Of a DNA stretch of 20,443 nucleotides, positions 18,001 through 20,443 are shown in pieces (positions within the stretch are counted from its first letter, which is position 1; every line of letters starts with the position of its first letter). The position numbers were made by a program. The DNA comes from a virus. Its lineage: Duplodnaviria > Heunggongvirae > Uroviricota > Caudoviricetes. The DNA lies in the IMG/VR virus record IMGVR_UViG_2778261540_000005, positions 1 to 20,443 of that record; one strand, 5' to 3'.

Positions 18001-20443
18001 GTCAGATTTGGCTATGAAGGTTTTGAAATGGCAATCAACTGGCGATGTCGGCATCAGTAGCGCAACTCTTGCCTCAATCGCATGTGGCCTGAAAAAGAAT
18101 ATCTATGGTCATCACTTCGGCGCTCCCCATGACGCAGCAGACTTTCGGCGATGCGTTGCACTTGTTGAGCAGATTCCAGAAATCAGAGATTCATTCGACA
18201 AGGTTGCAAAGCGCGTTCCGGCATTCAAAGGAATCCTCAACGAATGGGATTCACTCGTTGCTCTGTTGAAGTCTGAAATGAAGACGTACGGGAACAAAGC
18301 ACCAGAGACTTACAGAAGAATCAGCGAGCTACGCAAGGACTAACCCGCCTCACACTCGATGAGGCATTTTCATTTATCAAGATATCCAGACCTACCATCG
18401 CCGCATCAATGCGGTTTTTTTATTACCTGATTTGCAGGTTCGATTCCCTATTCGGAGATAGCACTCATGCAACACGAACTACAGCCTGATTCCCTGGTTG
18501 ATTTGAAATTCATCATGGCTGATACTGGCTTTGGTAAAACCTTCATCTACGACCGGATTAAGTCCGGCGACCTGCCAAAAGCCAAAGTTATCCACGGGCG
18601 AGCAAGATGGTTATATCGTGACCATTGTGAATTCAAAAATAAGCTCTTAAGCCGCGCCAATGGGTAAAATAGCGGGTAAAATATTTCTCACACCTAAAAA
18701 ACACCATTCCAATCAATCCCCTGCCGCTTCAAGTAGATGTCTGCAGGGGACACCAGATACCCTTCAAACGAAATCTACCTTCACCCCGTAAAAGATAGGT
18801 TTGGCAGCACACTTGCCTTATATCTACTCATTTTTACTGCAACAGGTTGAAATCTCAGCACTGTCAGAAAGCGCTGATGACTAAACAGCCCTGGGCCGGG
18901 CGATGTAACCATCACACAGAATCCTGATAGCGAAATATGGCGTGACTCGATACTTCACTCCGCAATGCATTCCTTGATGAATTCGCAGGACCGTGATACA
19001 CGGGACAGGTCGCTGAATGACGACAATGTCCTGGAAATCAGCGAACCGCGCATCTGAAGTACATTTGAGCGACTGTACCAGAACATGAATGAGGCGTTTG
19101 GATTAGGTGATTATTAGCAGGGCTAAGCACTTTAGTATTATTATTTTCCGGTTGAGGGATAGGGAGATATCGACAACAACCGGAAAAGTTTACGTCTATA
19201 TTGCTGAAGGTACAGGCGTTTCCATAACTATTTGCTCGCGTTTTTTACTCAGGAAGAAAATGCCAAATAGCAACATCAGGCAGACAATACCCGAAATTGC
19301 GAAGAAAACTGTCTGGTAGCCTGCGTGGTCAAAGAGTATCCCAGTCGGCGTTGAAAGCAGCACAATCCCAAGCGAACTGGCAATTTGAAAACCAATCAGA
19401 AAGATCGTCGACGACAGGCGCTTATCAAAATTTGCCACGCTGTATTTGAAGACGGATATGACACAAAGTGGAACCTCAATAGCATGTAACAGCTTCACTA
19501 ATGAAATAATCCAGGGGTTAACGAACAGCGCGCAGGAAAGGATACGCAACGCCATAATCACAACACCGATAAGTAATGCATTTTTTGGCCCTACCCGATT
19601 CACAAAGAAAGGAATAATCGCCATGCATAGCGCTTCGAGTACCACCTGGAATGAGTTGAGATAACCATACAGGCGCGTTCCTACATCGTGTGATTCGAAT
19701 AAACCTGCATAAAAGACAGGAAAAAGTTGTTGATCAAAAATGTTATAGAAAGACCACGTCCCCACAATAAATATGACGAAAACCCAGAAGTTTCGATCCT
19801 TGAAAACTGCGATAAAATCCTCTTTTTTTACCCCTCCCGCATCCGCCGCTACGCACTGGTGATCCTTATCTTTAAAACACATGTTGATCATCATAAATAC
19901 AGCGCCAAATAGCGAGACCAACCAGAAGTTGATATGGGGACTGATACTAAAAAATATGCCGGCAAAGAACGCGCCAATAGCATAGCCAAAAGATCCCCAG
20001 GCGCGCGCTGTTCCATATTCGAAATGAAAATTTCGCGCCATTTTTTCGGTGAAGCTGTCAAGCAAACCGCATCCCGCCAGATACCCCAGGCCAAAAAAGA
20101 GCGCCCCCAGAATTAGACCTACAGAAAAATTGCTTTGCAGTAACGGTTCATAAACGTAAATCATAAACGGTCCGGTCAAGACCAGGATGAAACTCATACA
20201 CCAGATGAGCGGTTTCTTCAGACCGAGTTTATCCTGAACGATGCCGTAGAACATCATAAATAGAATGCTGGTAAACTGGTTGACCGAATAAAGTGTACCT
20301 AATTCCGTCCCTGTCAACCCTAGATGTCCTTTCAGCCAAATAGCGTATAACGACCACCACAGCGACCAGGAAATAAAAAAGAGAAATGAGTAACTGGATG
20401 CAAAACGATAGTACGCATTTCTGAATGGAATATTCAGTGCCAT

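Follow-up and report, generated by a model that had tools for sequence, protein, structure and literature searches.

Does the sucrose-gene side of this prophage, where an excisionase gene lies between two pieces of a tRNA 3' half and no integrase gene precedes the chromosomal cscB, mark a decayed end or an ordinary one? The window, meaning the whole stretch of 20,443 nucleotides that was analysed, covers the right prophage end; the state of intS was read from two relatives, GDAR2-2 and GMM060. The first-pass annotation read the region as what looked like a tRNA-derived att core into which an approximately 290-bp xis segment had been inserted, or within which one had recombined, at a prophage end that seemed rearranged or decayed. 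We conclude instead, with a probability of about 0.88, that 18401-19195 is the intact attR of an argW prophage with the IntS-TorI module, and that the upstream tRNA-like piece (fragment 1) is a leader box outside the att site and a candidate site for a recombination protein. The features are collected in Table 1.

Table 1. Features around the right prophage junction (positions in the window)
Feature	Position	Strand	Remarks
Two intrinsic-terminator-like hairpins	18347-18421	+	18347-18365 and 18400-18415 plus T-run; each with a T-run
Box 1, T-arm-like, TTGCAGGTTCGATTCC(C)	18432-18448	+	first 16 nt equal argW positions 46-61
Fragment 1, GCAGGTTCGATTCC	18434-18447	+	
Box 1 segment GTTCGATTCC	inside 18420-18470		
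Family-conserved core of Box 1, GTTCGATTCCC	18438-18448	+	29 nt before the torI ATG
torI Shine-Dalgarno (SD), GGAG	18454-18457	+	within conserved block tccGGAGaTaaaACc (alignment consensus)
torI (hkaC/xis)	18467-18667	+	66-aa winged-helix recombination directionality factor (RDF); ORF between the two fragments
P-arm and core of attR	18644-18755	+	left edge is primer CTCTTAAGCCGCGCCAATGG at 18644-18663, mapped onto the window
43-aa ORF	18660-18791	+	homologous to the N-terminus of HK620 hkaB / Sf6 gene 17
Two direct GGGTAAAA repeats (TGGGTAAAATAGCGGGTAAAATA)	18661-18683	+	overlap the torI stop codon
Phage-side core flank, GTAGATGT	18733-18740	+	reads TTCGATGT, T-loop-like, in most relatives
Fragment 2, attR core (identity segment), CTGCAGGGGACACCA	18741-18755	+	last 15 nt of argW
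Chromosomal argW-cscB intergenic DNA	18756-19195		99.8-100% identity to empty-site strains
cscB, sucrose/oligosaccharide MFS transporter	19196-20443	-	415 aa

The junction at argW

The prophage host is a strain with csc sucrose genes after argW, the tRNA-Arg(CCU) gene, and the insertion is in the argW 3' end. In the sequence comparison, homology to the phages HK620, Sf6 and Kapi1 stops at 18755, and the match to empty-site chromosomes, in which argW lies directly beside cscB, begins at 18741; the overlap of the two homologies is exactly the phage/host junction. The empty-site comparison bears out the statement in the first-pass annotation that csc genes lie at argW in some strains, and the second of its two fragments is indeed the argW 3' end serving as att core, an exact match of 15 nt. 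A core of the length used by the module (15-16 nt) and identical to the argW 3' end sits at the junction, and the HK620 and Sf6 records carry an 'attP core' annotation at the matching place. The published core of the module is CTGCAGGGGACACCAT, 16 nt (PMC2951348); it is 15 nt here and 16 nt in K-12, as the base that follows CCA in the csc-type flank is G and not T.

A 135-bp attR substrate recombines in vitro, and its primer sets the left edge of the functional attR (PMC3509656, Methods). At 18661-18683 the window agrees at every position with the HK620 'attP' repeat_region, with GGGTAAAA at the xis 3' end where arm-type repeats of the module lie, and judging from the sequence these repeats are putative IntS arm-type sites; an overlap between the arm-type site P'1 and the PintS -10 box, TAaAAa, has been described (PMC2951348). 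The phage-side core flank is a putative core-type site C. Among the 50 distinct junctions in our table of core flanks, most relatives have a T-loop-like stretch right beside the core in attP, TTCGATGTA abutting TGCAGGGG, and an inverted-repeat analysis for IntS core-type half-sites found symmetry only at ATG/CAT. The 43-aa ORF crosses the core, its C-terminus being therefore host-derived, and is probably not a real gene.

The gene between the two fragments encodes an excisionase, as had been proposed: its product matches PDB 1z4h (Tor inhibition protein) over the full length (residues 1-66, E=6.6e-43), is 100% identical to HK620 HkaC and Sf6 gp18, and is also annotated as TorI in RefSeq, which makes it the 66-aa winged-helix TorI/HkaC RDF of the IntS-TorI module. 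Just 5' of the torI leader, the two hairpins end the upstream early-left genes (three terminator-like sites were found versus 0.5 expected); the weak Rfam matches over these two terminators, isrK/ncS025 with E of about 3.7, are not significant. The homology to HK620 and Sf6 begins at 18400.

Where the integrase lies

In the KplE1/HK620/Sf6 module, attP is located between xis and int (PMC8787464; PMC2951348), and the GenBank records that we compared give the same xis-attP-int order in the free phages. After integration, torI is therefore next to attR, and intS, the gene of the cognate P4-family integrase, is by the intact argW at a distance of about 20-50 kb; intS is the first prophage gene and torI the last, and their transcription is uncoupled (PMC2951348; PMC3509656; PMC8787464). 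The free phage carries, in this order, the early-left genes, terminators, torI (xis), arm-type sites, the 15-16-nt core, PintS and intS. Strand exchange within the core therefore leaves the intact argW and intS at the left prophage end, and torI with the 15-nt copy of the argW 3' end at the right end. The reverse reaction, excision (attL x attR to attP + attB, with IntS, TorI and IHF), has been demonstrated in the literature on KplE1 and HK620 substrates. In the window, torI is the last prophage gene by attR and has the same orientation as argW.

The first-pass annotation was right that no integrase lies between xis and cscB, and this is the expected state for an IntS-TorI module; the decay that it read from this absence does not follow, as attP normally separates xis from int. 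Indeed, in the GDAR2-2 prophage, which is 99.5% identical, an intact intS adjoins an intact argW at the other end, which is an outcome that the first-pass annotation had itself named as refuting its reading. In GMM060, the closest complete genome, intS is truncated. The architecture at 18401-19195 is thus already known, an ordinary attR and torI end of a KplE1/HK620-type prophage.

The closest described systems agree with this assignment. KplE1 (CPS-53) of E. coli K-12, arranged argW-attL-intS ... torI-attR, shares with the window its core, its orientation to argW, the arm-type repeats that lie at the torI stop codon, and the leader box 5' of torI (K-12-type loci L012/L015). It is a 10.2-kb remnant, whereas the window prophage is a much larger lambdoid element (about 20-50 kb in relatives) that carries Red and replication genes as well as a DLP12-like lysis cassette; on the right it is flanked by csc, and KplE1 by dsdC, and the duplicated core is 15 versus 16 nt. 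The P22-like Lederbergvirus group (HK620, Sf6, Kapi1, IME10 and CUS-3) shares the hkaC/gene 18-attP-int module, with 96-97% nucleotide identity to the window over 18400-18755, a segment that includes terminator, leader box, xis, arm sites and core. These phages are podoviruses in a free, circularly permuted form in which int follows immediately, whereas the window module rides on a lambda-like siphovirus-type prophage, as judged from the morphogenesis genes of relatives; the presence of the module on both backbones reflects mosaic exchange of a recombination module.

Lambda attR/xis-int likewise has a heterobivalent tyrosine integrase with arm-type and core-type sites and a small winged-helix RDF, which is expressed from antiterminated early-left transcription in both. 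Lambda has int and xis next to each other on the same side of attP, co-transcribed and with pI within xis, whereas in the module seen here attP separates int from xis, the int promoter is its own and autoregulated, and it is attL that carries the RDF sites (PMC2951348; PMC3509656). At other elements that target tRNA genes, the core likewise rebuilds the tRNA 3' end and a partial copy marks the distal junction; the window differs from such duplications in having an extra, non-recombining T-loop copy about 300 bp inside the element, before the RDF gene, and in the literature searched we found no description of such a copy.

A T-loop-like box before torI

The argW reference was read from an empty-site strain (L004:2441-2515, ...CTAATTGCAGGTTCGATTCCTGCAGGGGACACCA). 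Against it, both fragments of the first-pass annotation are real: fragment 1, once extended to 18432-18447, agrees with tRNA positions 46-61 at all 16 nt, fragment 2 agrees with positions 61-75 at all 15 nt, and, as claimed, the two are contiguous in the tRNA, abutting with a 1-nt overlap. Fragment 1 seems to continue fragment 2 because its sequence equals the T-loop flank directly left of the identity segment in attB. By our own calculation, the chance that 14-16 nt of the adjoining tRNA segment recur exactly on the same strand, no more than about 300 bp from the core, is approximately 1e-6 or less, and each of the two patterns occurs once in the window, even with 2-3 mismatches allowed.

Fragment 1 is nevertheless no part of the att site, nor is it a half that the core is missing. 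The left edge of the functional attR is at 18644, which leaves about 200 bp between fragment 1 and the 135-bp attR active in vitro; the idea of an xis segment inserted in the att core finds no support as an account of the structure seen today. Nor is a tRNA gene, pseudogene or tRNA-like RNA present: ARAGORN predicts 0 tRNA genes in the window, and the tRNA family in Rfam gives no hit at E<=10 in the window region searched. A T-arm with a paired stem was not found either, Box 1 being followed by CCCTA, not CCTGC, and so without a 3' T-stem partner. The idea that the whole leader is a decayed argW 3' half was rejected, as beyond the box 4/14 positions match, which is chance level.

As judged from the alignments, fragment 1 is the form that a conserved box, cAGGTTCGATTCCC, takes in the E. 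coli clade; the box follows the terminators and precedes the ribosome-binding site. The box lies about 29 nt 5' of the xis start, mostly at -29/-28, in 51 of the 78 distinct TorI-family leaders; roughly a third are without it, and those of them with a readable core still target argW. The sequence GTTCGATT is common to 20/20 divergent box-bearing representatives with unalignable flanks, an invariance that is partly circular because the set was selected for having the box. Midgardsormr38 and another locus (L207) carry a tandem duplicate of the box, and occasional SNPs occur in it within the E. coli clade, as in neighbouring positions. In phiEt88 the box is kept at 13/13 positions, with an Xis only 36-39% identical to TorI and different P'-arm repeats, but its Int and that of HK620 share 75% identity; presence of the box thus goes with the integrase and its target, not with the specificity of Xis. 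In most lineages a TTCGAT-like sequence also forms the phage-side core flank. Pseudomonas F116/phi297 AlpA-type relatives, tried as an outgroup with another target, are not comparable, as their gene order differs and int is convergent.

What the box may do

Our best guess is that Box 1 is a putative recombinase-binding site controlling torI, that is, a DNA site at which a recombination protein may modulate torI expression. The likeliest binder would be the core-binding/catalytic domains of the integrase, as these are expected to recognise flanks of the TTCGAT type in attB and attP anyway. The more specific proposal, that Box 1 is a functional operator copied from the T-loop flank of argW attB and that the integrase or another factor binding T-loop DNA controls excisionase synthesis through it, is possible but rather unlikely.

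Several other readings of fragment 1 have to be weighed against a recombinase-binding site. In the P' arm, the inferred TorI sites read RGTTCGY and follow each other at about 10 bp, beside the PintS -35 box, near which TorI sites have been located (PMC2951348); considering that Box 1 contains GGTTCGA, that a second (G/A)TYCGG follows 12 nt later and overlaps the SD in several lineages, and that some lineages have tandem copies of the box, TorI might bind here and autoregulate torI. This is unlikely: the phiEt88 box is identical despite its divergent Xis and P'-arm repeats (GATGTAACC), TorI binding on attL is cooperative over five sites (PMC3509656) with one or two here, and a spacing of 12-16 nt is not a helical repeat. 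The PtorI promoter has been called 'non-characterized' (PMC2951348, Panis et al.), which leaves room for a cII-activated pI promoter that includes fragment 1 and transcribes xis-attP-int for integration, as read from the HK620 and Sf6 records. The HK620 record places a 'promoter: phage integration' and a 'cII protein' site, TTGCCTGATTTGC, over the Box 1 stretch, and a homologous pI is annotated in Sf6. The lambda cII site is TTGC-N6-TTGC, and no such pair conserved among relatives is present: the HK620 TTGC tetrads are spaced N5, the window has TTAC-N5-TTGC with TTAC as first tetrad, and it is GTTCGATT, not the tetrads, that is conserved across the family. Moreover, no sigma-70-like promoter or hexamer pair was found in 18250-18850, and co-expression of Xis with Int would work against integration, so that we regard a pI promoter as improbable. 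No match to the IHF, sigma-54 or LexA consensus was seen by eye. The TorR 'tor box' is CTGTTCATAT; as a single box it is matched at 5/10 positions in E. coli and at 7/10 positions in the Salmonella clade, which was judged coincidental.

The split core itself draws on the abutting tRNA coordinates and on the two T-loop-like boxes that flank xis, with the 5' T-stem (CAGG) in Box 1 and the 3' T-stem and acceptor in the core-side box, a pattern compatible with ancient capture of a cassette between tRNA-derived sites. Core-proximal DNA that lacks the displaced segment, as an interrupted core would have, was not found in most lineages: attP has its own T-loop-like flank there, which means that the core does not cut the tRNA-like stretch short and that the upstream box, which is family-wide in torI leaders, is a second copy. 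With fragment 1 outside the functional attR and the leader beyond Box 1 at chance level, we find a core split by xis, at a rearranged end without int, quite improbable, and as a present-day rearrangement it is refuted by the normal, functional and published xis-attP-int layout and by the intS of GDAR2-2; an ancient tRNA-derived origin of Box 1 may still apply. An action in the mRNA, as a T-arm mimic or as an anti-SD hairpin hiding the torI ribosome-binding site, would suit the transcribed strand, the fixed distance to the ATG and the place just 5' of the SD; in leaders folded one at a time, UUCG/AUUCC is often paired with (C)GGAG, and the pattern of box, SD and ATG is, real tRNA genes aside, almost confined to TorI-family leaders. 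However, RNAalifold on 20 divergent leaders gave no consensus structure (energy 0.0) and no covariation-backed fold was found, T-stem pairing is constant only at the equivalent of G53-C61, predicted hairpins are weak and differ between lineages, and neither Rfam nor ARAGORN gives a match. A conserved hairpin or SD sequestration was accordingly rejected, and an mRNA element of any kind is very unlikely. An upstream ORF across the box was also rejected because the frames differ between E. coli (TTG CAG GTT CGA...) and Edwardsiella (ATG ACA GGT TCG...). Finally, T-loops very commonly read GGTTCGATTCC, the three further 5' matches (TTG) of the E. coli clade could be due to chance at about 1/64 (own calculation), and the box is lost in some lineages; a chance match or a neutral fossil is all the same highly improbable, considering that in this window alone the probability by chance is about 1e-6, and considering an exact 8-13-mer at the same offset across lineages whose Xis are 36-50% identical and whose flanking leaders are unalignable.

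Box 1 is one minor leftover motif in an otherwise known architecture. For annotation pipelines and manual readers, an excisionase without integrase and a partial tRNA copy at a prophage end are no sign of decay if the IntS-TorI module is present, and int should be sought at the opposite end, beside the intact tRNA. Panis et al. proposed RDF expression as the excision master switch in the whole class of tRNA-inserted prophages with uncoupled int and xis. Rho has reportedly been linked to torI read-through (Menouni et al. 2013). The control of torI is an acknowledged gap in this excision switch, with its 'non-characterized PtorI promoter' (PMC2951348); a strongly conserved box of 11-13 nt in the torI leader, at the site of this gap, is a defined target for mutagenesis. 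If Box 1 does act as an operator copied from argW, a tRNA-derived sequence would have been exapted as a cis-regulator of recombination directionality.

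The attR junction and the integrase end

The two tRNA-like fragments that the first-pass annotation had reported around xis are both present exactly where it had placed them. Aligned to the argW tRNA-Arg gene of an empty-site strain (GTCCTCTTAGTTAAATGGATATAACGAGCCCCTCCTAAGGGCTAATTGCAGGTTCGATTCCTGCAGGGGACACCA, L004:2441-2515), the exact match of fragment 1 lengthens to 16 nt (tRNA positions 46-61) and that of fragment 2 covers 15 nt (positions 61-75), so that they are contiguous in tRNA coordinates with one C in common. The chance of meeting a 14-mer from the adjoining tRNA segment on the same strand within 300 bp is about 1e-6; the match is far beyond chance. 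tRNA gene calling returned none in the window, and the Rfam search found no tRNA-like RNA.

Fragment 2 is the core, or identity segment, of attR. The junction was resolved to a single base by BLAST searches of phages and complete E. coli genomes: phage homology (HK620, Sf6, Kapi1, IME10, HK633 and others) spans 18400 to 18755 at 96-97% identity, and the match to prophage-free chromosomes begins at 18741 and continues to 19200 at 98-100%; the 15-nt overlap is thus the core. An 'attP core' is annotated at the homologous place in the HK620 and Sf6 GenBank records. The published KplE1 core is CTGCAGGGGACACCAT (PMC2951348); the window does not share its 16th base, since the csc-type flank starts with G. 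In prophage-free chromosomes, tRNA-Arg is directly adjoined by an oligosaccharide/sucrose MFS transporter gene; the E. coli genomes compared bear out both the argW origin of fragment 2 and the location of csc genes at argW. The hkaB/gene-17-like ORF spans the core, and its C-terminal part therefore varies with the integration state; it is a gene in the HK620 and Sf6 annotation, yet probably spurious.

The ORF at 18467-18667 is TorI, with a full-length match to PDB 1z4h (Tor inhibition protein, E=6.6e-43), 100% identity to HK620 HkaC and Sf6 gp18, and a RefSeq annotation as TorI. The gene order in HK620, Sf6 and Kapi1 is xis (hkaC), hkaB, attP core, promoter and int, and KplE1 begins with intS and ends with torI (Panis et al., PMC2951348); to find no int gene between torI and cscB is therefore normal and not decay. 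The window stops short of the left prophage end; two relatives show theirs. The GDAR2-2 prophage, 99.5% identical to window 205-18755, carries at its other end yfdC, tRNA-Arg, an intact intS (1158 nt) and ompT, among others. In GMM060, the closest csc-flanked genome, an intact argW lies about 29 kb past where the window's left end aligns, and a truncated integrase comes next. The rearranged or decayed end proposed for want of int is contradicted by the phage gene order and the intact intS of GDAR2-2.

The same torI-proximal 18 kb is joined to very different left halves in GMM060, GDAR2-2 and 2014C-3307 (L006, L269 and L005): one with full lambda-like morphogenesis genes and int truncated beside an ISL3 element, another an IS-disrupted remnant that has ompT and an intact intS, and the third a NACHT-containing variant. 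Prophages of this type at argW appear to be highly mosaic, and their degradation often starts at the int side.

In vitro, an attR substrate of only 135 bp recombines with attL (primer CTCTTAAGCCGCGCCAATGG; PMC3509656); fragment 1 lies about 200 bp left of its edge and is therefore dispensable for excisive recombination. Among 50 distinct junctions with a legible core flank, most non-E. coli lineages have T-loop-like DNA directly left of the core: gaGTTCGATGTA before TGCAGGGGACACCA in Serratia, and aaTTCGATGTA before TGCAGG in Erwinia, Citrobacter and Pantoea; in the E. coli clade the flank has diverged to GTAGATGTC. Thus attP has a stretch of its own in which the resemblance to the tRNA continues imperfectly, presumably as the integrase core-type site C, and fragment 1 is a second T-loop-like element upstream of it. 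A truncated core whose displaced half is fragment 1 was rejected, since the attP flank is itself T-loop-like in most of these lineages. The tRNA core split around an xis segment is accordingly not borne out, and what stands of the first-pass annotation is the argW-derived att core and its csc context. The attP core-side flank also alternates between TTCGAT and TTAGAT.

Features of the window
Position	Feature	Remarks
about 1-1600	DLP12-like lysis cassette	essD/rrrD/rzpD homologues; iss nearby in relatives
2408-3505	Prophage-borne porin	OmpC/NmpC-like, 365 aa
15504-16568	DndB/DGQHR-domain protein	354 aa; Pfam PF14072, E=3.8e-46
16722-16943	TraR/DksA-like gene	
17154-17756 (minus)	200-aa ORF	hydrophobic, membrane-protein-like
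17999-18343	114-aa ORF	
18432-18447	Fragment 1 (box)	16-nt argW match
18434-18447	GCAGGTTCGATTCC	within fragment 1
18432-18466	Box cAGGTTCGATTCCC to xis start	about 29 nt before xis start
18438-18459	Box and second (G/A)T(T/C)CGG unit	overlaps Shine-Dalgarno
18467-18667	torI (xis, hkaC)	
18644-18663	attR primer CTCTTAAGCCGCGCCAATGG	
18660-18791	hkaB/gene-17-like ORF	crosses att core
18741-18755	CTGCAGGGGACACCA	fragment 2, attR core

Other genes

The DndB/DGQHR-domain gene, in the early-left region adjoining exo/bet/gam, could be defence or anti-defence cargo. The 200-aa ORF, for which relatives carry only a hypothetical annotation, lies between the TraR/DksA-like gene and the 114-aa ORF. It is encoded on the other strand from the early genes around it and has the look of a moron insertion.

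A conserved box before xis

TorI-family loci were collected from species-representative genomes, IMG/VR contigs and GenBank phages (251 loci, 78 distinct leaders). The motif GTT[CT][GA]AT[TA][CTA]C occurs in 51 of the 78 distinct leaders, mostly with its start 29 or 28 nt ahead of the xis ATG, and a few further leaders have single-base variants such as GTTAGATTCC. The consensus of 20 representatives with <85% leader identity is cAgGTTCGATTcCCaa..tccGGAGaTaaaACctATG; GTTCGATT is common to all 20 and the flanks are unalignable, an invariance that is partly circular, as they were chosen for having the box. It is found in Escherichia, Enterobacter, Citrobacter, Serratia, Pantoea, Edwardsiella and Erwinia, and in the Salmonella Emek/g341c clade, where Xis is about 50% identical; Erwinia phage Midgardsormr38 (L007) and L207 carry it in tandem duplicate. 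Erwinia phage phiEt88 keeps the box unchanged over 13 nt; TorI and the phage's Xis share only 36-39% identity, the P'-arm repeats differ, and the integrase is 75% identical to HK620 Int. About one-third of distinct leaders have no box (Dryocola, Tatumella, Klebsiella phage Chronis, Erwinia EhrS_49 and others), and there xis often directly abuts the upstream gene. Genuine phage tRNA genes aside, nearly all IMG/VR occurrences of box+GGAG+ATG are in TorI-family leaders. That an 8-13-mer has stayed at a fixed offset despite such divergence argues for purifying selection on the box, which would hence be functional.

The box at this offset is seen in the window and in loci L007, L011, L016-L026 and L113-L216, and its C-to-A variant GTTAGA recurs independently in lineages of E. 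coli, Salmonella and Edwardsiella. A second (G/A)T(T/C)CGG, overlapping the Shine-Dalgarno, follows 12 nt after the box, as in GTTCGATTCCCT followed by ATTCGGAG, in several lineages (E. coli, Enterobacter, Pantoea stewartii, Edwardsiella), and in Enterobacter L016 the unit is present three times, spaced 12 nt apart; these may form a direct-repeat protein site.

Possible roles of the box in torI expression

This prophage end has an architecture already described and studied in detail. The conserved T-loop-like box in the leader is a minor feature, of which no description was found in the literature as far as we could search. PtorI is uncharacterised (Panis et al., PMC2951348). No sigma-70-like promoter was found around the torI leader, and 20 divergent box-bearing leaders gave no conserved RNA structure. 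The T-stem pairing is not kept. The HK620 authors annotated a cII-dependent pI promoter here (site TTGCCTGATTTGC); however, its cII tetrads have N5 spacing, are not kept across the TorI family, and one is mutated in the window (TTAC). The box also resembles the repeats inferred as TorI sites (RGTTCGY), as a Xis-specific operator would, but phiEt88 counts against this, having an identical box with so divergent a Xis.

The box is identical to GTTCGATTCC, the tRNA flank that adjoins the attB identity segment on its left, and is similar to the TTCGATGT flank in attP, positions at which integrase core-type contacts are expected; because it equals this flank, the box seems to end where the core begins, and no insertion is needed. 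Our preferred hypothesis is that the box is a candidate recombinase-binding half-site modulating torI expression, with the integrase as its most likely binder. Two terminator-like hairpins just upstream of the leader fit control of torI by read-through. Panis et al. (PMC2951348) propose RDF expression as the excision switch in this family, and such a half-site ahead of torI would tune it.
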